NCBI GenBank assembly: GCA_030583805.1
Contig: CP129476.1
Location: forward strand, 669,640 to 733,639
From: Patescibacteria group bacterium
GTDB taxonomy: Bacteria; Patescibacteriota; Patescibacteriia; SG8-24; DYFX01
Direction of reading: 5' to 3'
Length of the DNA stretch: 64,000 nt
Position numbers and translations under genes: made by a program. Positions 18,315 to 42,971 of the stretch are shown here, piece after piece. The notes beneath the pieces were generated by a model. That model was not told the origin of the DNA. It did no database searches and worked only from the letters and a program-made list of their open reading frames with translations. Positions within the stretch are counted from its first letter, which is position 1, and each line of letters opens with the position of its first letter.

Positions 18315-18389
18315 GGCCTCATCGTCTAACGGTTAGGACAGCTCCCTTTCACGGAGCAGATAGGGGTTCGATTCCCCTTGGGGCTACCA
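18315..18389 (+). tRNA. tRNA-Glu (anticodon UUC)
   Basis: Hand-folded cloverleaf. The acceptor stem is GGCCUCA/UGGGGCU with 2 G-U pairs. The D arm is GTCT/GGAC. The anticodon arm is GCTCC-cTTTCAc-GGAGC. The T arm is AGGGG-TTCGATT-CCCCT. CCA is encoded. Confidence 0.8.
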
Positions 18390-19878: not shown

Positions 19879-20198
19879 AGCTCATTCCGTACAATACCCA
19901 ATTTTTCGATGTTGGAGCCGACCCCAAGGGGTTTTTTGGAAAGATGATCTATTTTCCATCCCCGAGCATCGAAAGCTAGATGTCCGATGCCATACAAGAT
20001 TGCTAAAATACCCTCTAACTGCTCATTAGTGAGGTCTTTCAAGGCCGGATCGACTTTTCTAGCCTGTTTGGGCGAGAGCATCAGGAATAGCAACAAAAAA
20101 GCGTGCATGCCCACAACCCAAAAATAGGGGTTGTGAGGCATACACGCTTTCCGGCGATCCGACGTTATCGGACCGTACCCGGCTTCGGCGCTCGGCAA
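19875..20198 (-). CDS. Hypothetical small membrane protein
   Basis: 107-aa ORF that overlaps the recombinase start by 4 nt. It has one hydrophobic segment and low GC like the rest of the island. Confidence 0.35.
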   Translation of the reverse strand: MPSAEAGYGPITSDRRKACMPHNPYFWVVGMHAFLLLFLMLSPKQARKVDPALKDLTNEQLEGILAILYGIGHLAFDARGWKIDHLSKKPLGVGSNIEKLGIVRNEL

Positions 20199-20269
20199 AT
20201 TGCCGACGGTTGGGAAGACCTTATAGCGACAAGATTATATCTTTTTTGCACCCTATGCAAGTGCTGGTG

Positions 20270-22033
20270 TTATGCGGCTAGCTGCTCAAACACTGGGTCC
20301 AAACGTTCGGCTGCTACCCTTTTGGCACCGACCATTTTTGCCAGTTCCAAACACGCAACACCATATCCAATATTCTTCGAAGCAATATGGCGTTGATAAA
20401 ATTCCTTCAACATGGCTTTGCCGTGAAAACGATCTGTGGCCTTTCCCTCCGCCAATATTCCATCAACTACTTCGGTGGCATCAAGCACATAGCGCCCTAG
20501 GTCCGTGTCGTTAGGCAGCAATGCTTGAATTTCAGCCACCGCGCTTCTGTGGGCCTCCTTCACCTCCGCAACCGTAGCACCATTAAGACGCACCGTCCGA
20601 GTTTTTAACTTTTGACGAACGCGCCGTGCAATCTCGCTATTCTTCATGCTTGTAGCAATTACAACAAGCTCTTTCGAGAGTGCCGCTTCATCCGCAAAGG
20701 TATTCACTTCGATACTCAACAAGTACTGTTGCAGAATTTCCGGGTCTAAAAGGAAATTTTCGATCATGCATACAGGTAGCTGAAAAACGCCTGGGGTGCT
20801 TCCGAGAGATTGATCTGCGTCTACAAGACCCCTCACACGAATTCTATAGACGTCTTCGGGAACATGCTCGCGCAGACGAGTGACCGTATTAATGACATTC
20901 CCCTTACCACCCACTGGAACCAGTGTGTATGCAGTTGCCCTTGGATAAAAGATTTGAAGCAATCGAAGGTCGGAAGGCTCGTCGGGCGGTGCTGTCTCGC
21001 CTTCAATGCAAACCAGCGCTCGACCAGTGGTAAGGAAATAGGTACTACCAGCGAGTTGCTTTAGGGCCTCTAAGCGCTCAAGGCTAGATGCAATGCGCTT
21101 GAGTTGGTTTTCTTCCGGATCAGCTGACGGATTGGACAACAGGTACAACTCGTTGTCGAACGTCTGATCTAAGATGGTGGGTGAATGTGTAGTGAGAACG
21201 AATTGAGTTCTTGCAGTTGCTGCTTGGTTTCGTACGTAAGCAAGCAATTTTGATTGTAGGTCCGGGTGCAAATGCTGCTCTGGCTCATCCACTAAAAAAA
21301 CCCGATCCTCCGGCGCTCGAGCGGCCGGAGTGCTGCCAGACCCAATAGTTTCTAATTTCTCCAAATTCTCACGAATAGCGTCCTCCAGCAGGGGAAGGAA
21401 AAGAACGATGATCGATTTTTCGCCCGAACTCATGTCGTCAATATCAACCTCGATGGTGCCGCTGGCATCCTTACGAGCCCAGATACAACGGATATTTTCT
21501 TCGTCGGCAAAATCAATCCTATCGAAAACGAGGTGTGGCAATAGATACTTAGTCAGGTTTTCTAGGGGTTCGTAGATGCGCGGCAATGTTGCCGGATCAA
21601 TAGTTTCCCCATGACGTTGCTTTGCATCAACTACTCCAGCAATGATTGCCTGCCGCCGATTTTCGATCTTCCCTAGGGTATGCTTGATCGTACTACCAGC
21701 TTCATCGACGTTTCCGGGCGTGCGGGCAGAGTTATGAAAACTCAGGCCCTCGTAACCAGAAACATCATTGCCAGAAATCAAATCCGCAAGTGACCTAAGA
21801 CCGCCGGACAACCATCCACGCCTTACTTTAGTGGCGCGAAGAACACGGTGGGGCGGTTGATAAAAAATACGCGTGTTACCATCCGTGGTATTAGCACCTT
21901 GTTTAATGGCATATAAAAGCGTGGACTTGCCCACACCATTCGGACCAGCAATAACCATCACAGCCGGAACCTCTGTCGCTTCAGCTAGACGAATGGACTT
22001 GTTATTTACGACCCTGAAAGTTTTTAACCCCAT
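20270..22033 (-). CDS. OLD-family / PARIS (AriA-AriB fusion)-like ABC-type ATPase with C-terminal Toprim-like nuclease domain
   Basis: 587 aa. ABC-ATPase motifs seen: Walker A GPNGVGKST, Q-loop FYQPPH, signature-like MSSGEKS, Walker B/D-loop VFLVDEPEQHLHP, and H-loop LTTHSP. A C-terminal region with LVCIEGETA and GLVDADQS resembles the Toprim E and DxD motifs of OLD/DUF4435 nucleases. Confidence 0.6.
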   Translation of the reverse strand: MGLKTFRVVNNKSIRLAEATEVPAVMVIAGPNGVGKSTLLYAIKQGANTTDGNTRIFYQPPHRVLRATKVRRGWLSGGLRSLADLISGNDVSGYEGLSFHNSARTPGNVDEAGSTIKHTLGKIENRRQAIIAGVVDAKQRHGETIDPATLPRIYEPLENLTKYLLPHLVFDRIDFADEENIRCIWARKDASGTIEVDIDDMSSGEKSIIVLFLPLLEDAIRENLEKLETIGSGSTPAARAPEDRVFLVDEPEQHLHPDLQSKLLAYVRNQAATARTQFVLTTHSPTILDQTFDNELYLLSNPSADPEENQLKRIASSLERLEALKQLAGSTYFLTTGRALVCIEGETAPPDEPSDLRLLQIFYPRATAYTLVPVGGKGNVINTVTRLREHVPEDVYRIRVRGLVDADQSLGSTPGVFQLPVCMIENFLLDPEILQQYLLSIEVNTFADEAALSKELVVIATSMKNSEIARRVRQKLKTRTVRLNGATVAEVKEAHRSAVAEIQALLPNDTDLGRYVLDATEVVDGILAEGKATDRFHGKAMLKEFYQRHIASKNIGYGVACLELAKMVGAKRVAAERLDPVFEQLAA

Positions 22034-22346
22034 GTTTATTTGCTTGCTGACTTACGTTGGACAGAAGCGCCTTCACACGCTCCTTTTGATCATTGGACAT
22101 CCACTGTGCCCAATACCCCTGATATGAGGCAAGTTGTAGATAGGCGTTATACGCCGCGTCACCAGCGAATAGCTGTTGTGCCTGCGGTGAGCGGGTAACT
22201 AGTGTGGGGCTGTTGGTAGTGGCACGCAGCACCAGTCTTTGCGTGTCGGGCTGGTTATTTTCAGCGGTTTCTAAGCACCACTCAATATGGTCGAGCAATG
22301 CTCCATGCTTTGCGACATTATCACTGATTGGGATGCGAAAAAACAT
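22002..22346 (-). CDS. Hypothetical protein (114 aa), co-operonic with the OLD-like gene
   Basis: The ORF overlaps the downstream ATPase start by 32 nt. It has no known motif and the island's low-GC composition. Confidence 0.4.
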   Translation of the reverse strand: MFFRIPISDNVAKHGALLDHIEWCLETAENNQPDTQRLVLRATTNSPTLVTRSPQAQQLFAGDAAYNAYLQLASYQGYWAQWMSNDQKERVKALLSNVSQQANKHGVKNFQGRK

Positions 22347-22349
22347 ACT

Positions 22350-22562
22350 TCAGTTCTCGGTTCTCTCATTAATGAGCTCGCCTAAACATACAAGGTAAGC
22401 GACGCTAATGCCTACCACGAAAGCACGTTGTACCATTCCGCCACCGAAGACGTAGCCCAGAAGTGTGCCGCCAACAAACGCTGCGACCTGCTGAAGAATG
22501 ATCCTGCGAATTGGTGCCTCGCCTATTCCATACCAGCCCCAAAACCCTCTCTCTTTTTTCAT
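22350..22562 (-). CDS. Small two-TM membrane protein (hypothetical)
   Basis: MKKERGFWGWYG... with two hydrophobic helices. It is the first gene of the three-gene minus-strand operon. The start is uncertain (no SD). Confidence 0.35.
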   Translation of the reverse strand: MKKERGFWGWYGIGEAPIRRIILQQVAAFVGGTLLGYVFGGGMVQRAFVVGISVAYLVCLGELINERTEN

Positions 22563-22815
22563 ACCCGTGGTTGGATTTATTGGCAGGACGCACAAAGCTC
22601 CCCGCCAGCGATGGCTTGCGCCACCCATGCAAGTTTCCCTGCATGACCAACCACGGTGCTCTGACGAGGAGCCCTATACCGTGGTTGGTTTAGATGCCGT
22701 GCCCAGCGTTTTAGGCTGGGGTTAGGCACTATGAATTGTGGTGGTAATTTATCACATCTGGACCAGAAAGCTACAATGCTCGCTCCAAGACGCCTACTTT
22801 CAAAATTCGCTAAAC

Positions 22816-24273
22816 ATGGCTAGGCTTGTTAGCAACACCCCCCCCTTCACTCAGAAGACAATGATTGAAAAAACTGAAATAGAGGCCAAGGCAAAGGAGT
22901 TTGAGCTACACGTCGCAAATGTACAACGTGACTATGTTTTTGGTTGGCTACTTTTTGGTATTTTTACTTCAAGCAAATTAAAAGATCAGATTTTTTTGAA
23001 AGGCGGAAATGCATTACGCAAAGGGTATTTCCGTGACACACGCTTTTCAAGCGATTTGGACCTCGGTATTCCAAATGACATTGAACAGACTGTTTTGCTC
23101 GATGAGTTCAATGCTGTCTGCGCCTTTGTTGAGCATCACGCGGGGATTTCATTTGTTACGGATGAAAATAAAGTTGAGGAGAAGTTTGCCGCCGCCGAAG
23201 CGCCGATCCCTGGGTTGCGGGTCTATGAGGCCCGGATTTATTTCAGGGATTTCTATGGTAAAGCCGATCATTTCAAAATAAAGGTGGCGATGGACATCAC
23301 CCGTTTCGACAAGGTTCTATTACCGATACAATCGGTTGATTTGATACATCCATACTCTGATGCCAGCGATGTCGCCTGCAAAATCCAGTGTATGAAGTTG
23401 GAGGAGATCATCGCCACGAAATTGAAATGTCTTTTGCAAAGGGAGCATGCTCCTGATTTGTTCGATTACGTATATTCAATCAAACAGCTGGGCGGCGAGC
23501 TCAACAAAACCGAGGTAATTACGACGCTGGTTCAGAAAACAATTTTCGGACGCAACCCACATGTTCTGAAATGTATTCTACGAAATACACCTTTTGACTA
23601 TTTCAAAAGCTATTGGGCAACGACCGTTGTGTGTGCGAAACAATTTATCTTTGGAGTAGAAGAAGCAATTACGTTTTTTCTTTCTGACCTCGAAGGCTTG
23701 TTCACCATTTACCCGGATAATGGCTTCGAAGCGTTTGCTTACTTTGGACCAGAATTGAGATTGCCGATCATGAAGGCTGGGAGAGAGCAGACACTGCTCA
23801 AAATTTGCTATAAGGGAGCGGATAGGCTGGTCGAGCCCTACTCTCTGAAGTACATGCAACGTAAGGATGGCGTAGAGAGAGAATATCTATACGTCTACAA
23901 TCTAAGCGGCGGAGATAGCGAGCCCGGAATACGTTCATTTGTCGCGGAGAAAATTGAAGCAATCGAAAATACGAATGAAAAATTCGCCCCTCGGGCGCAA
24001 ATCGAATTATCAAAGGCTGGAGAGCTACCAGAAAATCCATACCTTTTTGACCCAGATAGGCCAACTCCCGCTCCACGCCCCCGCCATCGCGTCAGTAAGT
24101 TGACCCGAGGCTGGGGAAGCGCGGCGTCGTCAATCAAATACATCTATCAGTGTAGCTATTGCGGTCGAAAATTTTCTAAATCGAAACATGACGGATCGCT
24201 GCGAGAGCACAAAGACAAGGGAGGCTATCGCTGCGGAGGTAGGCACGGCTTCTATGTCGACACAAAATACTAA
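22816..24273 (+). CDS. AbiEii/DUF1814-like nucleotidyltransferase fused to a C-terminal zinc-ribbon (candidate abortive-infection/defence protein)
   Basis: The N-terminal motif IFLKGGNALRKGYFRDTRFSSDLDLG matches the AbiEii-type pol-beta NTase signature (hGG-x9-13-DhDh). The C-terminus YQCSYCGRKF...H...H..C...C is Cys/His-rich. The start is uncertain (22738 GTG, 22816 ATG, or 22861 ATG). A possible -10 TACAAT lies at 22772-22777. Confidence 0.6.
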   Translation: MARLVSNTPPFTQKTMIEKTEIEAKAKEFELHVANVQRDYVFGWLLFGIFTSSKLKDQIFLKGGNALRKGYFRDTRFSSDLDLGIPNDIEQTVLLDEFNAVCAFVEHHAGISFVTDENKVEEKFAAAEAPIPGLRVYEARIYFRDFYGKADHFKIKVAMDITRFDKVLLPIQSVDLIHPYSDASDVACKIQCMKLEEIIATKLKCLLQREHAPDLFDYVYSIKQLGGELNKTEVITTLVQKTIFGRNPHVLKCILRNTPFDYFKSYWATTVVCAKQFIFGVEEAITFFLSDLEGLFTIYPDNGFEAFAYFGPELRLPIMKAGREQTLLKICYKGADRLVEPYSLKYMQRKDGVEREYLYVYNLSGGDSEPGIRSFVAEKIEAIENTNEKFAPRAQIELSKAGELPENPYLFDPDRPTPAPRPRHRVSKLTRGWGSAASSIKYIYQCSYCGRKFSKSKHDGSLREHKDKGGYRCGGRHGFYVDTKY

Positions 24274-32174: not shown

Positions 32175-33224
32175 GTGGCCGACTCGGTTGAGCTGGCCGA
32201 ATCAACCGGCGTCGTTGTAGCAGAATCGTATTCCGATGTCGAAGACGGCGTTTCGTATTTCCACATCCGTACATCGAACAGCGCCGGATGGGGGCCGACG
32301 ACGCACTATCGCGTACAAGTCGACACGAAACCGCCTGAAGCGTTTGCCGTCACGGTCGAAACCGGCCTGACGACGCTCCTGAAAGCCGCGGCGAAAGACG
32401 CCACGTCCGGCATCGCCTCGTACATCGTGCAGGTCGATGACGGAGAGAGCGTCGAGGTCGATATGAAACAACTTGAGGCCGGCACGTATGTTCTTGAGAA
32501 CTTGCCGGCCGGAGCGCACAGCGTCCTGGTAACGGCGTACGACAAGGCCGGCAACTTCACGTCGACAACCGCGAGCTTTACGTCCGTGACCGCGCAAGCG
32601 CCTGTGATTGCCGAATATCCGGCAGAACTGTCCGACGGCGACGTTTTGACGCTGAAAGGCACGACCTATCCGAACGCGCAGTTGTCGATTTGGCTGCAGC
32701 GGGACTCAAAGGACATCCAGCGCTATACGCTCAAAGCGGACGAAAACGGCGCGTTCACGTTCGTCGGACCGGATCGCGTCAAAGGCGGTTTGTATCAGGT
32801 TTGGATGGAAGCCGTCACCGACCAAGGCTTCCGCACCGACGTCTCCAAGCCGATCTTCGTGAACGTCAAACAGACGGAGTTCTGGAGGCGGCTGGCCGAG
32901 TTGCAGAAGTACCTCACAGTCATCGTGCCGATCGTCGCCCTGACAATGACGCTCGTCTTGGTCATGCTGCACGGCGTGCAAAAAGCCGTCCGCCTGCGCC
33001 GCCGCATCCACCGTGAAATCGGCGACGTGGAAGGCGAGATTCATAAAGCCTTCGACACCCTGCGCACCGACCTGCGCGACCATCTGAAATCGCTCGAGAA
33101 GGCCAGGAACCAGCGCGAGCTGACGCCGGATGAGGAGAAAATCGCCGCGCGACTGAAGAAGAATCTTGACCTCGCGGAGAAGGCGCTCAAAAAGACGGTG
33201 GAAAAAATTGAAAAAGACGTCTAA
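32175..33224 (+). CDS. Ig-like-domain protein with C-terminal TM anchor and coiled-coil tail; possibly 5'-truncated
   Basis: GTG start with no SD and no signal peptide. Beta-rich Ig-like segments are followed by a TM helix (LTVIVPIVALTMTLVLVMLHGV) and a charged coiled-coil tail. Confidence 0.45.
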   Translation: MADSVELAESTGVVVAESYSDVEDGVSYFHIRTSNSAGWGPTTHYRVQVDTKPPEAFAVTVETGLTTLLKAAAKDATSGIASYIVQVDDGESVEVDMKQLEAGTYVLENLPAGAHSVLVTAYDKAGNFTSTTASFTSVTAQAPVIAEYPAELSDGDVLTLKGTTYPNAQLSIWLQRDSKDIQRYTLKADENGAFTFVGPDRVKGGLYQVWMEAVTDQGFRTDVSKPIFVNVKQTEFWRRLAELQKYLTVIVPIVALTMTLVLVMLHGVQKAVRLRRRIHREIGDVEGEIHKAFDTLRTDLRDHLKSLEKARNQRELTPDEEKIAARLKKNLDLAEKALKKTVEKIEKDV

Positions 33225-33251: not shown

Positions 33252-35555
33252 TTACCGTTTCACTTCTTCCGCGATCGCTTCGTCAAAGGGTCGTTCGAGC
33301 TCAGACGACTGGCGTTCCCACAACTGTTCCAGCGACGCGATCGGTGATCCCCAGTCATACGCGGAGACGTACGCATCACCGAGTAATGGGAGTTCGGTCA
33401 TCCAATCTTCCGCAAGCGCACGTTCCTGGACACCGGGCAGGATTTGCCTCAACCGCCTGCCGCTATCGATCAGGTAGGCGTGATCGTTTCCGTACATGCG
33501 CACGACGGTTCCCGGACGGTAGCCGATCGAAAGGCCGAGCGGGAGTTTTGCCAGTTGATATTCCGGTACGGTTTCGATTTCGTCGTGCAATCGCCAGCTT
33601 TCGACAGTCGCCGCGTCCAAGAACACATGCCGCACTCTTTCCTTGTCGAGATAATAAGCCGTCGCCGTCCTCGTTCCTCTAAAGACGTCGCCGGGATGGG
33701 CATGCGGGACGCGCGACGCCTCGCACAATTCGGGAAACGCGGTGAGGTCGATGGATTGTCCGCGCTCGTAGACGCGCGTATCCCTGAGAATCCGCACATC
33801 TTCAATGACAGCCCCGTCCGCGAGCACGCGCACGCGAATCTCGTGGCTGTACCCACCCGTCGCTTCAATGTGTACATAACGCCGATGATTGAGACGCTCG
33901 ATATGAACGACGATATCATCGTCCGTTCGCCCGCTGAGCTGGTCGAAGACGTACGTGGTCTCGATATCGGTGAGCCGCGCCACTCGAGGGCGCTCCTCAA
34001 CGCCGCTCTCGCCGCCCTGAAGATTGATAAGATACGGCTCCAGCGACATGTGTTCGTAGTCGGCGCGACACTGCGGCTCGACGCCGGGCGCGATGATCTT
34101 CTCGCCGTCCGGCGTCCTGATCGTTTCATGCGCATGCGGCGAATGGCACTGGTCGGCCGCATCCAGCCGCACGGCAACGACCTCGGGTTCGGACATCAGC
34201 CCGAAGGGGCTCATGAATTGAACGTACGCTGTTTTCAAGCCGTCGCCCTCCGACAGCACAAACGGCACCGCCTCTACGCGCAACACGTCGCCGTAATACG
34301 GAATCCATTCTGAACCAGAAAATTCTGGATCTTCGCTGATGCGCACGCGATGCGCGTTGTGGGCATGCACGAGAATCGCGATATTTCTTGTTGTTGTGCA
34401 CAGTTCCGGATCGGTGGCGATCTCGATGTTCGTCGGCAAAATCGCGCCGGAGCCGCCCTGATACCCCGGCATCGTGATGATTTTCGCCGTGTTCGACCGC
34501 GCGGATTCGTTTCCGCTCGAATCGGACGCTTTCATCGCAAAGTAGTAGGTCGCTTCGGGGGCCAGACCCTCGATCGACATCGTTTGGCGCGTACCCGCCA
34601 CTTCCGGCACCGGCACGCCCGTGATTTGCCGCGCCACGACAAAATCGGTCTCAGTCACGATCGGCGTAAGCGCGTAGCGGATATCGTATGAAAAAGCGGT
34701 TCCGACCACACCGTCATCACCGGGAGCCGTCCATGCCAACTCGACGACCGATGCCGCCGGATTCACGGCGACTAAATCCGCAATCGCTGCGGGAGGCGTC
34801 GCGTCCTCTTGGAAACGCACAATGTGCCCGCGCCAGCCCACGGCAGCACCGGAGACCGCAGTCACGACACCTTGAAGACCCGGGCTATTGGCGAGGTTAT
34901 CGCCCGCCGCGAATGCCGCGTCGGGAGCCGTACCGGGACCTGAGGTATTGAAGTCTTGCCGCTCGACGAATCCCTCGCTGCCATTGCTCCACGAGGGGTT
35001 AGTCAACGCTCTTGATGCACCGATCGTGAAAGCGGCAAAAACTAGTTCGTTCGCTTCCGTCGTCGTCACGTTTCCGGAAAAAGGCGCGCGACTGTTTCCT
35101 TCCGCCCCGCTCGATCCGACATACGCCAGCGAGCCCGCGTATTCATACACGTGCAGTCCGATAGAACCCGGATTGGAAGCAGCCGTTACGGAGACCGATT
35201 GCTCTCCTCCAACCGCTCGCTTGAAAAATACGGCCTGACTGATCGCGCCAGCTTGATTGATTGCGGTATCCCAACCGTGCGGTTCCGCAATTGCCGCATT
35301 TCCATTCGCTCCGACCACGGCGATCAACATGTGCCCGGACGATACGGCCGAAGAAAAAACAGTGCTGACGGTTGTCGGGTCAGCCTCCGTTGCAAGCTTC
35401 ACGCCTTGCGCGGCCTGCACGAATGTCGCCGCCTGCGTAGGACCCGCCGAAAACAAAAGTGCGCCGCCGAACGTGAAGAGCGCAACAGCCGCCAACATCC
35501 GACGCGCCGTCCGCGTGCGGTTCTTTTGTAAAAGCCGAAGTTCCGTATGCGGCAT
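33252..35555 (-). CDS. Large secreted protein with fibronectin type III domain (hypothetical)
   Basis: A long Tat/Sec-like signal (…TRTARRMLAAVALFTFGGALLFSAGPTQA) is followed by an FN3-like segment (APGDDGVVGTAFSYDIRYA...YYFAMKASDSSGNES). Confidence 0.6.
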   Translation of the reverse strand: MPHTELRLLQKNRTRTARRMLAAVALFTFGGALLFSAGPTQAATFVQAAQGVKLATEADPTTVSTVFSSAVSSGHMLIAVVGANGNAAIAEPHGWDTAINQAGAISQAVFFKRAVGGEQSVSVTAASNPGSIGLHVYEYAGSLAYVGSSGAEGNSRAPFSGNVTTTEANELVFAAFTIGASRALTNPSWSNGSEGFVERQDFNTSGPGTAPDAAFAAGDNLANSPGLQGVVTAVSGAAVGWRGHIVRFQEDATPPAAIADLVAVNPAASVVELAWTAPGDDGVVGTAFSYDIRYALTPIVTETDFVVARQITGVPVPEVAGTRQTMSIEGLAPEATYYFAMKASDSSGNESARSNTAKIITMPGYQGGSGAILPTNIEIATDPELCTTTRNIAILVHAHNAHRVRISEDPEFSGSEWIPYYGDVLRVEAVPFVLSEGDGLKTAYVQFMSPFGLMSEPEVVAVRLDAADQCHSPHAHETIRTPDGEKIIAPGVEPQCRADYEHMSLEPYLINLQGGESGVEERPRVARLTDIETTYVFDQLSGRTDDDIVVHIERLNHRRYVHIEATGGYSHEIRVRVLADGAVIEDVRILRDTRVYERGQSIDLTAFPELCEASRVPHAHPGDVFRGTRTATAYYLDKERVRHVFLDAATVESWRLHDEIETVPEYQLAKLPLGLSIGYRPGTVVRMYGNDHAYLIDSGRRLRQILPGVQERALAEDWMTELPLLGDAYVSAYDWGSPIASLEQLWERQSSELERPFDEAIAEEVKR

Positions 35556-35658
35556 GGTGCAAAATACCCTTATATCATAGCAAAAAAATACCATTTTGTC
35601 CATTCTCTTCAGCAAAAAAACGCCCCCTTTCGGGAGCGTTTTTTTGGAACCGGGTCGA

Positions 35659-38600
35659 TTAGAGTGCGGTCAGGTCGACGGTGAATTCGCAGCCGGCAGG
35701 GTTCGTGAGATCAACCCTCCAACCGCTCAAGAAGTCGCTGTCGACGTTGCGCATGTTGACCAAGTTGACCGTGTAGCCGGCTTGGCCGCGGATGCTCAGG
35801 TTACCCGCGCGGATCGAGCCGTCGGCCTGAACGGCCGGTTGCGTCGGCACGTGCACCTGGAAGGTGGCCGACACGCCGGGTGCGACCTGGCAGGTATCGT
35901 GCACGCGGAGCGTGTTGCCCTGGAAGCGCAGGTCGCGCAGCCACGACTGAACGTAGCTCGAGTTGCGGGAATAGGCCGGTGTCAGGTTCGCCTGGGCGGT
36001 GACGACGTCGCCGGACCTGGAGTACGTCATCGAAGAAACGGATTCGTTCTGTTCGATGGCCGAACCGTTGCGGTCGAAGCGGACGACGTTCTGACCGACA
36101 ACGCTCATCTGGATGCCGCTGTGCGACCAGATGTTCGAGGTCGCGGCGAGCCAACCGTTGCGATACAGCGTGAAGGCGCCCTGGTCGTGATGCGCGTGCG
36201 ATTCGTCATACGGACCGGCGACGAACGACATCCAGAAGGCGTCGCGGTTCCACGAGTTGCGAGCGAAGAAGTGGCCGACGCCCGTGGCGTGGTATTCAAG
36301 CGCGGTTGGCGGCGTCGCGACGTCCGAGATGGTCAGCACGCCGGTGCGGCGGTTGAAGCCGTCCAAGGACGAATCGGAGTTGTTCTCGAGCCACCAGACG
36401 CCGCGGCGCGCCTGCTCGGTGCCCGGGTTGAGGGCAACGGCTTCACGCACGAGGTTCTCATGGTAGTCGTAGATTTCCGGCTGCGAGACGCGCGACTGGT
36501 CGCCGATCGGGGCGAAACGGTCGAGCGTCGGAACGGTCGCGTGAACCCAGTAATCGATCGTATCCCGGGCGTGCGTCGAGAGGCGCGAGAGATCTTCGCC
36601 GGTCGAAGCCTTCCACATGCGATAGTTCTCGAAGAGATTCTTCTGCGCCGTGCCGTATCCGGTACCTTCGCGGCTACCGCCGCCGCTGATGCGGGCGAAG
36701 TAGTTCACGAGGGGCGGGAACTTGTTCTGCTGGAGGAAGTTGATCCACGTCATGTTCTTCGAAGCGAGCGCCCAAAGCTGGGTGGCTTCCAAGAAGCTGA
36801 AGTGGTAGTTGTTGCCCGGGTTATCGATCGACCAGCCGCTCCACGGAGCGGAACGGGTGCCCCATCGGGCGGTCGACGGATTCCAGACGTTATAGATCGT
36901 CTGGTCGGCATACGCGATCCAGCGCGCGCGCTGGGACGGCGTCATGCGGTCGTAGCCGCGGTCGAACGTAAGCGCGACCTGTTCGATGTTCCAGCCGACT
37001 TCAAGGTACGAGTCGCCGGCGACATCGGGGTTCCGTCCGGCGGCGATCGCCGCTTCCGCAGCCGCAACCATGGCGTCGACCCTCGTGATGGCGTGGTCGA
37101 TATAGCTCGTCGTACCCGTGAGGGCGTACATCACGGCAGCGTCGCTCGGCGTGTAGTCGTAGCCGGGAGAGCCTGCGACAGCGGCATCCACCCAGGCCTT
37201 AAAGCTGGCGTAGCCTGATGCGGACGTGCTGAAGTTTTGAAGCGAGATGAAGGGGCGGTTGACCGGAAGGGTATACGTGTACCCCGGATAGACAGAACCG
37301 GTCGAAGGCGGCGTGCACGTCTGCGTGGTCGCCGGGCTCGGCGTGGTGACGCCGGCGCAGTCGGTCGTCATGGTGCACGAACGCGTCTGGCTGCCGCTCG
37401 CGGAGCAGGCGTTCCAGGCAGTACACGTCCAGGTGTCGGCGGTGCAGGAAGGCGTCGTCGTGGGCGGCGTGCACGACTGGGTCGTGGCCGGGCTCGGCGT
37501 GGTGACGCCAGGGCAGTCCGAGGTCATGCTGCACGAACGCGTCTGGGAACCGCTCGCGGAGCAGGCGTTCCAGTCGGTGCAAGACCACGTGTCGGCGGTG
37601 CAGGAAGGCGACGTCGAAGGCGGCGTGCACGACTGGGTCGTGGCCGGGCTCGGCGTGGTGACGCCGGCGCAGTCGTACGTCATGAGACAGCTGCGCGCTT
37701 GGCTGCCGCTCGACGAACACATAACCCAATCGGTGCAGGACCAGGTGTCCGCGGTGCAGCTCTGCGTCGGGGCCGTGCTCGATCCTTGCTGCACGACATA
37801 CAGGTGCGCGTCATCAACGGTCGCAGTAATCGTGCCGCCATCGTCCAGCTTGAACTGGAAGTAGACGCGGTCGAGGCGCTGGCCGTTGGTATTCAGCGTC
37901 AGATAGACGTCGACAATCTGCGTGCTGACAGGATAGTCCTGGCACGTTGAGGACGGATCGCTCGAGGTCATCGTGTACGCGATCGAACACACCTGCAGGC
38001 GAAGACCCGAAGCCGAAGCGCTGTCGACGCGCATTTTTGCCTTGACGGTGAGCGAGTTCGCGATCGGGCCGCCGTTATACGGATAGGCCTTTTCAAAGGC
38101 GACGCGGCCGTACGAGTTCGCGGTGACGCGCAGGCTGCTCGTGCCTTGAATGGCGTTGGCAGCGAGACGCGAGACGGTACCGTCCGAGCTTCCGTTCGGC
38201 TCGAAGCCGCCAACCGTCGTTTCAAAGCCGTTGTCGGTAATAAGGTCGACGAGTTCATAGCCCGAAGGCACCGTCGGCATCTGGCCGGTGGTCGCCGGCG
38301 GAGTCGTCGTTGCAGGCGGCGTGCAGGATTGCGTGGTGGCCGGACTCGGCGTCGAAACACCCGCGCATTCGTTCGTGATGATGCAGACGCGCATCTGGCT
38401 GCCGCTCGAAGAGCAGGCGTTCCAGTCGGTGCAGGACCAGACATCAGCGGTGCAGGAAGGCGTAGACGAAATCGGCGTGCAGGACTGGGTCGTGGCCGGA
38501 CTCGGCGTAACGACGCCGGCGCAGTCTTCCGTCATGGTGCACAAACGCGTCTGGCTGCCGCTCGAAGAACAGGCGTTCCACTCGGTGCACGACCACGTGT

Positions 38601-39369
38601 CGGCCGTGCAGGAAGGCGTCGTCGTGGGCGGGGTGCAGGATTGCGTGGTGGCCGGGCTCGGCGTAACGACGCCGGCGCAGTCAGCCGTCATGGTGCACGT
38701 GCGCGTCTGGGAACCGCTTGCGGAGCAGGCGTTCCACTCGGAGCACGACCACGTGTCGGCCGTGCAGGAAGGCGCCGGAGGAGGCGTCGTGCCGGTCGGA
38801 GCGTCAGGAAGAGGCGCGGTCGGCGTCAATGCGCCCAAATTTTTGTCGGCATTGATCGTCGTGGCGGAGGCGAGTTCCGCATTGCGGTCGTAGTCGGAAG
38901 CGGAAACGATCTGGGAGCCGATCGTATAGTTTACGAAGAAAGCATCCGGAATATCGTCGACAAGCGTGGCCCAACCGGAGCCGAAGATGGCCGCAGCCAC
39001 GGACTCAGACGCGATATGACGCAAAACGCCTCCGCGAGAAACCGCGTAGACTTTCGGGTCGGTATCGATCTTCACCATGCGGAAACCCGGGCGGTAGGTG
39101 ACGTTTCCGCCGATGCGCGCTTCGGTCAACTCAGCGGCCGTGACGTTCTGGACGCTGGAAAAGTCGACGTACCACGTGCGGAAAACACGCTCGTTCGGAA
39201 AGACGTAACGCCGGCCGTTGGTGGCGTAGTAATAGACGGCGGGATGATCGGCGCGCTTGATCAGCGAGCCCGGCGCCGGGGCGGCGTGCGCCAAAGGCGG
39301 CATGCCGAGAAGAGACGTCGCGAGCGTTATAAGAAGGATCAAGGCACGGAACGCGTTCGTCTTCTTCAT
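35659..39369 (-). CDS. Giant secreted protein: conserved N-terminal domain, 6 copies of a ~47-aa six-Cys module, and a C-terminal heparinase II/III-like polysaccharide lyase domain
   Basis: 1236 aa with a signal peptide. The repeats read SCTADTWSCTDWNACSASGSQTRSCTMTTDCAGVTTPSPATTQSCTPP. The C-terminal alpha/alpha-toroid-like region carries YDESHAHHDQGAFTLYRNGW, like the His/Tyr catalytic motif of the heparinase II/III family. Confidence 0.7.
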   Translation of the reverse strand: MKKTNAFRALILLITLATSLLGMPPLAHAAPAPGSLIKRADHPAVYYYATNGRRYVFPNERVFRTWYVDFSSVQNVTAAELTEARIGGNVTYRPGFRMVKIDTDPKVYAVSRGGVLRHIASESVAAAIFGSGWATLVDDIPDAFFVNYTIGSQIVSASDYDRNAELASATTINADKNLGALTPTAPLPDAPTGTTPPPAPSCTADTWSCSEWNACSASGSQTRTCTMTADCAGVVTPSPATTQSCTPPTTTPSCTADTWSCTEWNACSSSGSQTRLCTMTEDCAGVVTPSPATTQSCTPISSTPSCTADVWSCTDWNACSSSGSQMRVCIITNECAGVSTPSPATTQSCTPPATTTPPATTGQMPTVPSGYELVDLITDNGFETTVGGFEPNGSSDGTVSRLAANAIQGTSSLRVTANSYGRVAFEKAYPYNGGPIANSLTVKAKMRVDSASASGLRLQVCSIAYTMTSSDPSSTCQDYPVSTQIVDVYLTLNTNGQRLDRVYFQFKLDDGGTITATVDDAHLYVVQQGSSTAPTQSCTADTWSCTDWVMCSSSGSQARSCLMTYDCAGVTTPSPATTQSCTPPSTSPSCTADTWSCTDWNACSASGSQTRSCSMTSDCPGVTTPSPATTQSCTPPTTTPSCTADTWTCTAWNACSASGSQTRSCTMTTDCAGVTTPSPATTQTCTPPSTGSVYPGYTYTLPVNRPFISLQNFSTSASGYASFKAWVDAAVAGSPGYDYTPSDAAVMYALTGTTSYIDHAITRVDAMVAAAEAAIAAGRNPDVAGDSYLEVGWNIEQVALTFDRGYDRMTPSQRARWIAYADQTIYNVWNPSTARWGTRSAPWSGWSIDNPGNNYHFSFLEATQLWALASKNMTWINFLQQNKFPPLVNYFARISGGGSREGTGYGTAQKNLFENYRMWKASTGEDLSRLSTHARDTIDYWVHATVPTLDRFAPIGDQSRVSQPEIYDYHENLVREAVALNPGTEQARRGVWWLENNSDSSLDGFNRRTGVLTISDVATPPTALEYHATGVGHFFARNSWNRDAFWMSFVAGPYDESHAHHDQGAFTLYRNGWLAATSNIWSHSGIQMSVVGQNVVRFDRNGSAIEQNESVSSMTYSRSGDVVTAQANLTPAYSRNSSYVQSWLRDLRFQGNTLRVHDTCQVAPGVSATFQVHVPTQPAVQADGSIRAGNLSIRGQAGYTVNLVNMRNVDSDFLSGWRVDLTNPAGCEFTVDLTAL
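37300..37750 (-). repeat. Intragenic tandem repeat (3 x ~150 bp) encoding the six-Cys module
   Basis: The nucleotide-level repeats also give repetitive antisense ORFs. Confidence 0.7.
38320..38770 (-). repeat. Intragenic tandem repeat (3 x ~150 bp) encoding the six-Cys module
   Basis: Same unit as 37300-37750. Confidence 0.7.
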
Positions 39370-39393
39370 AGGCTTTTGAGTTTCAAGGCCTTC

Positions 39394-39422
39394 ATTGTAT
39401 CAAAAAAACGTCAAGAGTTCAA
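39394..39422 (-). promoter_or_regulatory. Sigma-70-type promoter of giant gene 1, duplicated at 42882-42910
   Basis: Minus strand reads TTGAAC, 17 nt, then TACAAT. The ~45 nt from the ATG upstream are identical between the two paralogues. Confidence 0.5.
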
Positions 39423-39437
39423 GAGCAGTTTTTGCAC

Positions 39438-39480
39438 TGTTGCAACAAAAAAGACACCCGCGACGAGTTGCCGCGGGTGT
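39438..39480 (-). terminator. Terminator of giant gene 2
   Basis: Minus strand reads aagacacccgcggcaactcgtcgcgggtgtctttttt. Confidence 0.6.
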
Positions 39481-39497
39481 CTTAGGCTTATTCTCGA

Positions 39498-42400
39498 TTA
39501 CCAGATGCTCCGGCCGCCGAGCGCCCAGCCGATGACGGGGGCGTTCTTGTACTGCCAGAGGAACTTGCGAGGCGGCGTCGTGCGGTAGATCGCACGTCCG
39601 GCGTCCCTGGTCGCCTGGTTGTCGCGCGTCCAATACGCGATCGATTCATCGTGCGTCAGAAGCAGTTCGCGAGCCATGGCTTGGAGATTCGCCCGCTGGG
39701 CCATGTCTTGCGTGAGGTACGCGCCGAGCGCGATAACCGAGCTCACGTCGAGCGCATGCTCGAAACCGTCAGACGGATTCGGGTCGGTATCGCCTGGCGT
39801 ACCGAAGCTGCGCGCGATGTAGTACGGGTACCAGCGGCCATCGCTCATCGGGCCTTCGCCGCCGACGGGCTTGGAGGTGATGCCGCGCGTGACTTCGCAC
39901 TGCGCGAGGTCGACGATCGCAGCCGGAGCCGAGGAGTACCCCGTCGCCTGATACCCGCGGAGGAAGCCGTAGCCGAGAAGGCTCGACATCCACGGAGAGA
40001 ACGTATTGGTCTCCCCTTCCGGCGGATAGTTGAAGCAGCCGTTCGGCTGGTTGCCATTCAAGGGGGACGTCTGGCGAGCACGCATCACTTCCATGGCGTT
40101 CGTGGCATAGGAACGCTGGTGAGCGCTGCCCGTCAGCTCGGCGTCGATCGCGTGCGCAAGCAGCGCGTAGCCGCGATGACGTTCCGTGTCGCCCGTACCG
40201 AGCAAGTTGTGGTGGAACTGGAAGCCCCACGAGATGTAACCGATCTTGCGGAGAACCGACGCGTCGCCCGTGAGCAAGTAGTTCGAGAGCAAGCTTTCGC
40301 TGTACGAATACTTCATGTCATGGAACGAACCGGTCGCGTTCGGGTTCTTCAGGCGGAAGCTGCCGACGCAGTACGGGTAGTACGTGCTGGAGCAGTTTTC
40401 TGGACCGTAGATATTCTGCGCGTAGTGATCCGCGGCGCGATGCGCTTCGCGGAGCATATCGACGTTCCCGGTACGGAAGTAGCCGTTATAGAACGTTTGC
40501 GTACGGTCGTAGAGCCACGGCTCCGGATCCGTGTAGAAGTTGATGTAGTCCGACGAGCTCGTGACCGGCCAGCTCTGCTTCTTCGGGTACTGCTGGTTGA
40601 TCAGCGAGTAGAAGAAGTCGTCGGTCGCCTTGTCGGTGGCGGCGAGGTACGGCTGCGTGCCGACGGCATTCACCATCGGGAACACGTTCGTGCAGTCGAG
40701 ATAGCGGTGATCGATGGCGGCGAGGACGGCCGGTTCGCGAATCGTAAGGCCGCTCGTGTTCACCGACGACGCATAGGTGCCGTCGTTCGCGACGCGGTAC
40801 GTGTCACGCACTGCCGTTTCGCTGGTGAGGCTCTGCGTGCGGGCGCGGTTCAAGCCGATCGTAACGTTGACCGGGCTCGTGCTCGAGAAGGCCATATCGA
40901 ACTGCACGAGGACGCTGCGGATACCCGGGTTACCGGAAGCCGTGAGGCCATTGCAGAGCAAGCGCTGATCCGGCATCCGTTCCCACGCGCCGAGGCTGCG
41001 GACGAACGCCGGGATTTCCTGGCCGGCCGCGTTGGTCACGCGGATATTGTTGGTGTTCACGAGCGTTCCAGGCGGCAACGGGAAGCCGAAGGAGACGCGG
41101 CGCGTCTGGCCGACGGCGTCGGCCGCCGGGACCAAGCGCACCGTCACGTCTTTCGGCGTCGTATTGACCGCGGCGCCGTTCGAGGAGACGTCGTTGCGCA
41201 AATCCATTTCGGCGGTCATCGAGCGCCAGGTGGTCGGGCGGCTGTTATAGCCCGAAATTTCAAGGTTGGTGGAGTCCGAAGCCGGAGGCGGCGGCGTGCA
41301 GGACTGCGACGTAGCCGGGCTTGGCGTGGTCACGCCGGCGCAGTCGGTCGTCATGGTGCACGAGCGCGTCTGGGAACCGCTTGCGGAGCAGGCGTTCCAG
41401 TCGGTGCACGTCCACGTGTCGGCCGTGCAGGAAGGCGTCGGCGTTCCAGGCGTGCAGCTCTGCGTCGTAGCCGGGCTCGGCGTGGTCACGCCGGCGCAGT
41501 CCGAAGTCATGGTGCAGGTACGCGTCTGGCTGCCGCTCGTGGAACAGGCGTTCCAATCGGTGCAAGACCAGGTGTCGGCCGTGCACGAAGGCGTCGGCTC
41601 GGGTGCCGGAGTCGCGCTGCCGCGTTGAACGATGTAGAGGTGCGCATCGTCAAGCGTCGCGACAAGCGTGCCGTCATCATCCAGCTTGAGCTGGAAGTAG
41701 GTGCGCGCAATCTGCTGACCGCCGACTTCATACGTCAGGAAGACGTCTTTGACCCCCTGGTTGACCCGGAAGTCCTGGCACTTCGTTCGCTGGTTGTTGC
41801 TCGTTTGGAGATAGACAACCGCGCAAATCTGCAGATTCTTGTTGGAGGCCGAAGCGCTGTCGACGCGCACTTTCGCCTTTACGGTGACGGAGTCGGCGAT
41901 GGGGCCTCCGGCGTACGGGTATTCCTGCGCGAAGGCGATACGGCCGTAGCGGTTGAAGCTGGCGCGGAGGCTGCCGGTTCCCGCGATCACGTTCGTGGTG
42001 ACGCGCGAGACGCTTCCCGAAGAGGCGCCATTGGGCGCGAAACCTCCGGTCGACGTTTCAAAACCGTTATCGGTGATAGCATCAACGAGAATGGAGCCGC
42101 TCGGAACCGTCGGCATCGGGCCGGTGGTCGGCGGAGGCGGCGGCGTGCAGGACTGCGACGTAGCCGGGCTCGGCGTAACGACGCCGGCGCAGTCGGTCGT
42201 CATGGTGCACGAACGCGTTTGCGTGCCGCTAGCAGAGCACATGTTCCAATCCGTGCACGTCCAGGTGTCGGCCGTGCAGCTCGGCGCGGGCGGCGGAGTG
42301 GGCGTCGGATCAACGACGTCGCCAAGGCCTTTATCGGCATTAATCGTCGTGGCAGAAGCCAATTCGGCGCTCGGGCTGTAATCAGAAGCCGAGGTAATAG

Positions 42401-42857
42401 GGGCTCCGTCCGTGTAGTTTACGAAAAACGGGTCGGGAATATCGTCGACGAGCGACGCCCAGCCGGAGCCGAAAATAGCGGCCGCTACGGCTTCCGAGGG
42501 AAGAAGCCTCAAAACGCCGCCGCGGGAAATCGCGTAGACGCTGGGGTCGGTGTCGATTTTAATCATCCTCAAACCCGGTCGATAGGTGACGTTGCCGCCG
42601 ATCGTGATGGCGGCAAGCTCGTCAGCCGTGACGGTTTGCACGGTGGAAAAGTCGGCATACCACGTGCGGAACACTTGTTCGTTCGGAAAGACGTAACGCC
42701 GGCTGTTTGAAGCGAAGTAATAGACGGCGGGATGATCGGCGCGTTTGATCAGCGACCCGGGCGTCGGCGCCGCTTTCGCCGTGAAAGGCATCCCCATGAA
42801 GGACGTGGCGATCGTGAGCAAGAGGATCAAGGCGCGGAACGCGTTCGTCTTCTTCAT
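39498..42857 (-). CDS. Giant secreted paralogue: same N-terminal domain, 3 copies of the six-Cys module, and a different large C-terminal domain (unassigned, possibly glycan-active)
   Basis: 1119 aa. The first ~190 aa are ~75% identical to 35659-39369. The cysteine repeats read PSCTADTWTCTDWNACSASGSQTRSCTMTTDCAGVTTPSPATSQSCTPPPP. Confidence 0.7.
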   Translation of the reverse strand: MKKTNAFRALILLLTIATSFMGMPFTAKAAPTPGSLIKRADHPAVYYFASNSRRYVFPNEQVFRTWYADFSTVQTVTADELAAITIGGNVTYRPGLRMIKIDTDPSVYAISRGGVLRLLPSEAVAAAIFGSGWASLVDDIPDPFFVNYTDGAPITSASDYSPSAELASATTINADKGLGDVVDPTPTPPPAPSCTADTWTCTDWNMCSASGTQTRSCTMTTDCAGVVTPSPATSQSCTPPPPPTTGPMPTVPSGSILVDAITDNGFETSTGGFAPNGASSGSVSRVTTNVIAGTGSLRASFNRYGRIAFAQEYPYAGGPIADSVTVKAKVRVDSASASNKNLQICAVVYLQTSNNQRTKCQDFRVNQGVKDVFLTYEVGGQQIARTYFQLKLDDDGTLVATLDDAHLYIVQRGSATPAPEPTPSCTADTWSCTDWNACSTSGSQTRTCTMTSDCAGVTTPSPATTQSCTPGTPTPSCTADTWTCTDWNACSASGSQTRSCTMTTDCAGVTTPSPATSQSCTPPPPASDSTNLEISGYNSRPTTWRSMTAEMDLRNDVSSNGAAVNTTPKDVTVRLVPAADAVGQTRRVSFGFPLPPGTLVNTNNIRVTNAAGQEIPAFVRSLGAWERMPDQRLLCNGLTASGNPGIRSVLVQFDMAFSSTSPVNVTIGLNRARTQSLTSETAVRDTYRVANDGTYASSVNTSGLTIREPAVLAAIDHRYLDCTNVFPMVNAVGTQPYLAATDKATDDFFYSLINQQYPKKQSWPVTSSSDYINFYTDPEPWLYDRTQTFYNGYFRTGNVDMLREAHRAADHYAQNIYGPENCSSTYYPYCVGSFRLKNPNATGSFHDMKYSYSESLLSNYLLTGDASVLRKIGYISWGFQFHHNLLGTGDTERHRGYALLAHAIDAELTGSAHQRSYATNAMEVMRARQTSPLNGNQPNGCFNYPPEGETNTFSPWMSSLLGYGFLRGYQATGYSSAPAAIVDLAQCEVTRGITSKPVGGEGPMSDGRWYPYYIARSFGTPGDTDPNPSDGFEHALDVSSVIALGAYLTQDMAQRANLQAMARELLLTHDESIAYWTRDNQATRDAGRAIYRTTPPRKFLWQYKNAPVIGWALGGRSIW
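41297..41597 (-). repeat. Intragenic tandem repeat (2 x ~150 bp) encoding the six-Cys module
   Basis: Same module as in gene 35659-39369. A single further copy lies at ~42137-42272. Confidence 0.65.
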
Positions 42858-42881
42858 AGGCTTTTGAGTTTCAAGGCCTTC

Positions 42882-42910
42882 ATTGTATCAAAAAATGTCA
42901 AGTATTTCAA
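42882..42910 (-). promoter_or_regulatory. Sigma-70-type promoter of giant gene 2
   Basis: Minus strand reads TTGAAA, 17 nt, then TACAAT. Confidence 0.5.
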
Positions 42911-42971
42911 GTGCATCTTTTCTTGAAAAAAACGCGCTCGATGCGCGAGCGCGAGTGGTGCGTGGTGTTGA

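Follow-up and report, generated by a model that had tools for sequence, protein, structure and literature searches.

Tandem paralogous proteins with a shared six-cysteine scaffold and different C-terminal heads in a Patescibacteria genome

Patescibacteria, whose genomes are very small, are believed to rely on partner cells. In a 64,000-nucleotide stretch of contig CP129476.1 from a Patescibacteria group bacterium (assembly GCA_030583805.1, positions 669,640 to 733,639; hereafter the window, to which the coordinates below refer), two adjacent minus-strand genes, here called A and B, encode large proteins that comparison of their sequences identifies as tandem paralogues; they share one scaffold, but their C-terminal heads are not homologous. 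We consider it fairly likely that the two are co-regulated, Sec-secreted modular polysaccharide-active enzymes, in which a common disulfide-rich scaffold carries exchanged heads. The overall architecture is of a known kind, that of the modular secreted carbohydrate-active enzyme (CAZyme), and three of its parts, namely a family of six-cysteine modules, an N-terminal domain (N domain) and the head of protein B, are undescribed in the libraries and literature that we searched.

Domain architecture of the two paralogues

The original prediction for this locus, made from the nucleotide sequence alone, had described two adjacent minus-strand genes of 1236 and 1119 amino acids (aa), and its open reading frame (ORF) coordinates match ours exactly; it also called the products giant, which at 1.1-1.2 kaa is better put as large. 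GenBank WKZ28633.1 (QY323_03780, Patescibacteria group bacterium), encoded on a contig of 1,167,441 bp, has the same sequence as the product of gene B. A collection of 15 billion proteins contains no exact copy of the gene A product, although the gene B product of the same genome is present there; in the public record gene A may be unannotated, annotated with a different start or flagged as a pseudogene. Its closest relative (P0001) is 78% identical. The features of the two genes are as follows.

42882..42910, minus strand: promoter-like site of gene B, TTGAAA-17-TACAAT with TG extension; the 24-nt leader after it is the same as in gene A
39498-42857, minus strand: gene B, 1119 aa, intact ORF
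42771..42857, minus strand: signal peptide of B, aa 1-29, ending AKA|A, as read from the sequence
42318..42770, minus strand: N domain of B, aa 30-180, lineage-specific, without Pfam or PDB match
42141..42281, minus strand: six-Cys module B1, aa 193-239
41610..42110, minus strand: middle domain of B, a beta-sandwich resembling a carbohydrate-binding module (CBM-like), aa 250-416
41292..41588, minus strand: six-Cys modules B2 and B3, aa 424-522
39501..41285, minus strand: head B, aa 525-1119, modelled as a beta domain plus (alpha/alpha)6 toroid, rare unnamed family
39451..39483, minus strand: intrinsic terminator with a hairpin stem of 14 bp and a T run, separating gene B from the gene A promoter
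39394..39422, minus strand: promoter-like site of gene A, TTGAAC-17-TACAAT with TG extension
35659-39369, minus strand: gene A, 1236 aa, intact ORF
39283..39369, minus strand: signal peptide of A, aa 1-29, ending AHA|A, as read from the sequence
38830..39282, minus strand: N domain of A, aa 30-180
38317..38769, minus strand: six-Cys modules A1-A3, aa 201-351
37774..38283, minus strand: middle CBM-like domain of A, aa 363-532
37309..37761, minus strand: six-Cys modules A4-A6, aa 537-687
35662..37305, minus strand: head A, aa 689-1236, heparinase II/III-like polysaccharide-lyase domain, motif YDESHAHHDQG

The common scaffold thus runs from a signal peptide through the N domain, one to three modules, the CBM-like domain and another two or three modules to a predicted catalytic head. 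Between A and B the N-terminal region including the signal peptide (aa 1-245) is 75% identical, as is, approximately, the N domain of about 150 aa within it. The middle domain of about 165 aa, which had been overlooked in the original prediction, is about 60% identical, and together with its flanking modules the identity is 66% over 335 aa. A near-identical promoter, 5′ leader, signal peptide and N-terminal domain had been proposed for the pair; this holds for the promoter and leader, of which 40 nt are identical, and the signal peptide is indeed shared, but at 75% identity the N-terminal region falls well short of it.

The tandem arrangement in other assemblies

The region is repetitive: modules of 47 aa and Pro/Thr linkers of 5 aa give a DNA period of 156 nt, and the two paralogues lie at a distance of 3.5 kb. 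It is natural to ask whether the tandem duplication or the number of repeats has been produced by the assembly. The module copies are 72-93% identical as protein and 72-88% as DNA, and their divergence (synonymous divergence dS of 0.66, dN/dS of 0.19) indicates that the repeats are old and under purifying selection; with no pair above 88% nucleotide identity, an assembler would have had no cause to merge or multiply copies. Both ORFs are intact, and the arrangement recurs elsewhere. In the independent assembly GCA_020049755.1 a B orthologue of 90% identity lies ahead of the gene for P0001 and points the same way, and the spacer from B to A is 127 nt long with the same layout of terminator, promoter and leader. 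In a third genome (JBAZZB01) a B orthologue of 1140 aa and an A orthologue of 1203 aa, the latter with two plus three modules, follow each other in that order on one contig, at a distance of about 5 kb. An assembly artefact, which the original prediction had named as grounds for withdrawing its claim, is therefore extremely improbable, and short of confirmation at the level of reads we regard it as excluded.

Concerted evolution of promoters and leaders

Upstream of A and B the 40 nt that end at the ATG are identical (0 expected by chance), and the promoter-like sites of both genes read TTGAA(C/A)-17-TACAAT with a TG extension. The terminator hairpin that separates gene B from the promoter of gene A makes them separate transcription units. 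The promoter core is kept in all five genes that were compared, and the leader variants are specific to each genome and common to both paralogues of that genome (window 39370-39430 and 42858-42918; L001, L002 and L009). Over positions -60 to -1 the identity is 90-95% within a genome versus 72-85% between genomes. The coding region of the N domain, by contrast, shows the usual pattern, being more similar between orthologues (87%) than between paralogues (77%). Such homogenisation of the 5′ region within a genome indicates concerted evolution of the promoters and leaders of the two paralogues, presumably through gene conversion or strong joint regulatory constraint, and it argues for co-expression; with promoter and leader kept alike within each genome, both enzymes would be produced together.

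A Shine-Dalgarno sequence is not evident in the leader of about 24 nt. A reading of the leader as a structured RNA is not supported: its short AGGC/GCCT complement is lost in the related genome, and Rfam has no match there.

Head A belongs to a heparinase-like family

The two heads are unrelated to each other; homology between them was rejected, as hhalign of the two families gave a 1% probability of relationship. The original prediction had described one head as heparinase II/III-like and the other as unrelated to it, and both statements hold, except that the second head too turns out to resemble carbohydrate enzymes, through a predicted (alpha/alpha)6 toroid.

Head A is a member of a broad family related to the heparinase II/III polysaccharide lyases. 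More than 1,267 homologues, about 50% identical, occur in many phyla, and some are named 'heparinase II/III family protein' at NCBI. The profile of this family finds structurally characterised lyases of the heparinase II/III type in the PDB, namely heparinase III 4mmh (E=4.5e-7), the heparinases 8r75 and 8r6z, heparinase II 2fuq (E=4.7e-5) and the PL15 oligo-alginate lyase 3a0o (E=3.6e-4), and it also matches a PL35 lyase. Eleven of 20 family members match Pfam Hepar_II_III_C (PF07940), with a best E-value of 2.8e-7. A block Y..SHAH.DQG is invariant in the family, as are dozens of polar and aromatic columns; it may contain the equivalent of the catalytic His of heparinase II. The match to the heparinase II/III-like lyases (PL12, PL21, PL15, PL17; PF07940) covers the region of the H-x-H-x-D-x-G motif, but compared with the characterised enzymes head A represents a distinct, unnamed subfamily of remote similarity that lies below the Pfam cut-off.

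Head B belongs to a rare family with a predicted toroid fold

Head B has 39 detectable relatives, scattered over several phyla and without a Pfam domain, and its sequence profile finds no match in the PDB. In its AlphaFold2 (AF2) model (pLDDT 88.5, pTM 0.91) a beta domain leads into an (alpha/alpha)6 toroid, and such a fold is typical for carbohydrate-active enzymes. Foldseek relates it to AGE epimerases, GH76, GH88, GH9, GH127 and PL8 at E-values of 1e-5 to 1e-3, and below the Pfam threshold PcRGLX_1st is seen in 7 of 25 members (E=0.03 for B) and GH127 in 4 of 25. The model is thus of the same fold class as the (alpha/alpha)6 enzymes with an N-terminal beta domain, such as the PcRGLX-like PL26, GH127, GH9 with its Ig-like domain and the AGE epimerases; it differs from them in its low TM-scores, in the absence of transferable catalytic residues and in belonging to a family of 39 members.

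The middle domain and the N domain

The middle domain stands N-terminal to both head families in other phyla, 45 times before an A-type head and 6 times before a B-type head, a position that fits a CBM role. Its matches of CBM type are all below threshold (Mann_GBD_bact at E=0.5, a CBM13-like match at E=0.007 and CBM chains in the PDB at E about 1); matches to picornavirus VP4 chains in the PDB were dismissed as spurious. The six-Cys modules accompany 8 of 126 A-type heads and 6 of 43 B-type heads. The occurrence of the middle domain before both heads across phyla implies that cassettes of a CBM-like domain plus a head are old, and the N domain and the modules are, as far as these comparisons go, additions of the lineage. 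That both head families have this CBM-like partner in other phyla makes it probable that the two enzymes complement each other in attacking one polymer or several related ones.

For the N domain (aa 30-180) no relative was found in Pfam or the PDB, the antibody chains among the PDB matches being spurious. It is common right behind the signal peptide of 'hypothetical' proteins of about 1200 aa named Candidatus Uhrbacteria, and it also occurs in proteins with TIG, beta-helix or GH44 domains. The gene downstream of A (33252-35615) has a C-terminal copy of it (25% identity, E=1e-8), so that three consecutive genes carry this undescribed domain. In a related genome the N domain lies beside a sequence that resembles, by eye, a peptidoglycan-binding domain, and in other module proteins a PG_binding_1 domain takes the same position after the signal peptide. 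Neither an LPxTG motif nor a C-terminal transmembrane anchor is present in A or B, and the same is true of SLH and dockerin domains. From the peptidoglycan-type neighbours and positional equivalents, together with the lack of an LPxTG or transmembrane anchor, we infer that the N domain may serve in envelope retention.

Enzymes or adhesins

Several of these observations weigh against the enzyme reading and deserve to be set out together. Head A itself scores 17.6-20.5 bits against Hepar_II_III_C, below the gathering threshold of 24; head B has no close structural relative (query TM-score, TMq, of 0.3-0.4), and its enzymatic activity is predicted from its fold class; the middle domain, considered as a galactose-binding-like sandwich of the CBM4/9/22 type, has no significant match to a CBM family profile, so that its CBM-like label comes from the sub-threshold matches given above. 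One could accordingly picture A and B as non-catalytic adhesins, their heads being degenerate enzyme folds that bind the polysaccharide of a partner, and the sub-threshold score of head A, the isolation of head B and the common view that Patescibacteria live attached to other cells would all agree with it. However, head A is about 50% identical across phyla with invariant columns that include Y..SHAH.DQG, a pattern typical of a conserved active site, and head B keeps invariant charged residues across homologues of 25-30% identity. We thus hold the adhesin explanation to be very unlikely and prefer to regard A and B as enzymes.

The six-cysteine module

A six-frame scan of the whole 64-kb window found the six-Cys pattern nine times, six times in A and three times in B, in agreement with the counts first proposed. 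The spacing is C-x6-C-x5-C-x9-C-x5-C-x13-C; the prediction had given two of the gaps one residue too short (x5 and x12), although its own example sequence shows x6 and x13. The consensus is P-x-C-T-x-D-x-W-x-C-x-x-W-x-x-C-S-x-x-G-x-Q-T-R-x-C, with W8, W13 and R24 invariant or nearly so.

No match in Pfam-A or NCBIfam was obtained with the full proteins, with isolated modules (single or triple; hmmscan, E<=10) or with seven other module-rich proteins. Against PDB sequences the module profile finds no chain with a thrombospondin type 1 repeat (TSR); an LDL-receptor class A match at E about 1.3 was judged a coincidence of Cys pattern and discarded. The profile of a natural four-Cys variant had no match there. 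Literature searches on Patescibacteria or the candidate phyla radiation (CPR) together with thrombospondin or cysteine-rich proteins gave no account of the module, the matches being type-3 repeats or unrelated.

With a profile of 66 sequences, 1,479 cluster representatives are found at E<=1e-3 and 491 at <=1e-10 among 1.84 billion, these being protein clusters at 50% identity. Close relatives come from Uhrbacteria, Parcubacteria/Paceibacterota, Minisyncoccota, Gribaldobacteria, Peregrinibacteria and Saccharibacteria, according to source names and to a genome scan that, being run with the nine window copies, reaches close relatives only; a few metagenome-assembled genomes (MAGs) are labelled otherwise, and occurrences under names such as Acidobacteria, Thermoanaerobaculia and Binatia may be due to transfer or mis-binning. 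The family thus presents itself as mainly patescibacterial, extracellular and unannotated. Among 75 sampled module proteins the fusion partners are Trypsin_2 (38/75) and Trypsin (12/75), then LamG, TIG, PG_binding_1 and others, a variety that marks the module as a promiscuous extracellular building block. It is not peculiar to genes A and B, and its commonest partner is a secreted trypsin-like protease, not a glycan-active head.

Some relatives extend this picture. In P0157, P0182, P0193 and P0204 a broader repeat family, C-T-P-N-W-x-C-x-x-W-x-x-C-x-x-x-Q-T-R-T-C-T-D-x-N-x-C-G...K-P-x-x-x-Q-x-C, reaches up to 18 copies per protein and often follows a coiled coil and a PG_binding_1 domain. The four-Cys variant, CTSWTYSDWS.CS..G.QTR.V, is interspersed among six-Cys copies in protease-bearing proteins. 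Finally P0018, P0019, P0011 and P0025, of about 1,800-1,970 aa, combine the middle domain, two modules, a beta-helix and a heparinase-like head in MAGs labelled Acidobacteria or Thermoanaerobaculia, which means either that the module is not strictly confined to Patescibacteria or that these bins are mislabelled.

Resemblance of the module to thrombospondin type 1 repeats

The AF2 model of the module has a pLDDT of 94.9, with short strands at residues 7-10, 21-23, 26-30 and 43-45, and the top Foldseek matches in the PDB are TSR-containing chains: the TSR of T. gondii MIC2 (TMq 0.55, 31% identity), the Unc5A ectodomain, complement C5b8 and TSR3-4 of semaphorin-5A. With TSRs (TSP_1, PF00090), especially those of group 2 as in MIC2, TRAP, properdin and UNC5, the module has in common an extracellular setting, a length of about 50 aa, six Cys, a predicted three to four short strands and an occurrence in tandem arrays inside adhesive or secreted multidomain proteins; its motif W..W..CS..G.Q.R..C resembles the TSR signature. 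It differs from them in the spacing of its Trp residues (5, with an intervening Cys, as opposed to 3), in having one invariant Arg where the TSR has R-x-R, in its Cys spacing, in its shorter length (47 aa), in being prokaryotic, and in the lack of a match to the Pfam model or to TSR sequences in the PDB.

The likely disulfides were considered through a census of Cys residues. Six are present in 526 of 562 full-length repeats, and in 31 of the remaining 36 Cys2 and Cys4 are lost together, which suggests a Cys2-Cys4 bond. Such a bond, deduced from the paired loss, is non-canonical for TSRs and has no counterpart there. The other two pairs, presumably Cys1-Cys5 and Cys3-Cys6 by analogy with the pairing of group-2 TSRs, are compatible with group 2. 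We infer for the module a compact beta fold of TSR-like type, held by three disulfides.

Profile comparisons with seven TSRs of TSP-1 and properdin, whose sequences were verified against PDB entries, gave a mixed result. The alignment of 573 module repeats paired with the TSRs in the expected register at a probability of 15% (hhalign), and the four-Cys variant did so at 57% and 48%. Against a relationship stand the best Foldseek E-value of 1.2, which is not significant, the 66-sequence module alignment, which was placed in a non-TSR register at 28% probability, and the searches with the Pfam TSP_1 model and with PDB profiles, none of which links the module to the TSR. Thus the module may be functionally like the TSR and possibly related to it, but its sequence profile does not place it in that family. 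The original prediction could not assign the module to a described domain, and with the negative Pfam, NCBIfam and PDB profiles this remains so; its claim of novelty is partly weakened by the TSR-like fold and motif, which approach, at suggestive significance, the match to a well-known disulfide-rich family that it had thought damaging.

TSRs are usually regarded as a eukaryotic adhesion module. A more far-reaching proposal, which we offer tentatively and would sooner doubt than accept, is that the 47-aa module and its four- to six-Cys variants form a genuine prokaryotic branch of the TSR superfamily, present in hundreds to thousands of secreted proteins and concentrated in episymbiotic Patescibacteria, where they would be adhesive stalks that carry proteases or polysaccharide-degrading heads to the surface of a partner.

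A proposed role for the scaffold

Strung on 5-residue Pro/Thr linkers, the modules are most likely stiff, protease-resistant and possibly adhesive spacers that together would form a stalk. Their frequent fusion to proteases, their replacement by Ser/Gly/Pro linkers in the orthologue P0004 and their varying copy number among orthologues fit a spacer role. The module could instead be a small carbohydrate-binding module in its own right (comparable to CBM1, CBM10 or hevein-like knots with exposed Trp), which would provide avidity for glycans rather than distance. Two nearly invariant Trp in a 47-aa disulfide knot, the tandem copies beside CAZyme-like heads and the PG_binding_1 or SLH domains of some module proteins speak in its favour; yet trypsin-like proteases, not glycan enzymes, form the heads of at least half of the module proteins sampled, a separate CBM-like domain is already present, the TSR-like register would bury the Trp in a layered core, and P0004 has exchanged its modules for linkers while the rest of the protein is kept. 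We therefore think a carbohydrate-binding module unlikely, and retain the spacer role in what follows.

In the mechanism that we propose, the N domain would retain the protein at the envelope of the producer. From there the stalk would project the CBM-like domain and the head, which would bind and cut a polysaccharide of acidic or otherwise complex nature, such as the capsule or extracellular polysaccharide of a partner or environmental glycans. The proteins may also bind host or partner surface glycans, as was first suggested for them. The pair would go back to a duplicated scaffold in which one head cassette was exchanged. The modular swapping of heads on a common stalk that had been predicted is borne out in its two elements, a shared scaffold and non-homologous heads, with the qualification that the exchange uses old cassettes of CBM-like domain plus head.

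The same logic is known from the modular secreted CAZymes of Gram-positive bacteria, which consist of a signal peptide, an anchor-like domain, a spacer, a CBM-like domain and a catalytic head, and whose paralogues swap heads. Unlike these, A and B have folded disulfide-rich modules as spacers in place of PT linkers or FN3/Ig domains, and their anchor-like N domain is of an undescribed family rather than an LPxTG, SLH or dockerin type.

Neighbouring genes and a low-GC island

The gene that follows A has the following features.

33252..35615, minus strand: downstream neighbour gene, 787 aa, FN3-like region, C-terminal aa 641-761 homologous to the N domain of A and B

This gene, too, has a TG-extended promoter-like site, at 35574-35602. 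In the same neighbourhood, at 32175-33224 on the plus strand, lies a gene for an Ig-like (Big_13) protein with a C-terminal transmembrane segment and a coiled coil; such a protein is also found near the B-type gene of JBAZZB01 (L002 20-1024, just upstream there), so that synteny around the locus is conserved.

Elsewhere in the window, a low-GC island at 18315-24273 (47-51% versus about 62%) adjoins a tRNA-Glu gene and contains the following features.

18349-19878, minus strand: large serine recombinase
20270-22033, minus strand: fused AriA/AriB-like (PARIS-type) ATPase-DUF4435 protein
22610-22728, minus strand: LOOT RNA, 89.5 bits
22738-24273, plus strand: AbiEii toxin homologue

Its contents suggest a defence island that has integrated into this CPR genome.

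Implications

The locus shows a reusable secreted scaffold that carries different hydrolytic heads, and in relatives the modules mostly carry proteases. A definition of the module family would annotate about 1,500 clusters of 'hypothetical' surface or secreted proteins, and heads A and B flag two uncharacterised candidate families of polysaccharide-active proteins, one widespread and heparinase-like and one rare. If the relationship with TSRs is true, a classic eukaryotic adhesion fold would extend to bacteria, and the module would be a bacterial relative, or even a source, of the TSRs; and if it does represent a prokaryotic branch of that superfamily, it would be a common scaffold for attack or attachment in CPR bacteria.

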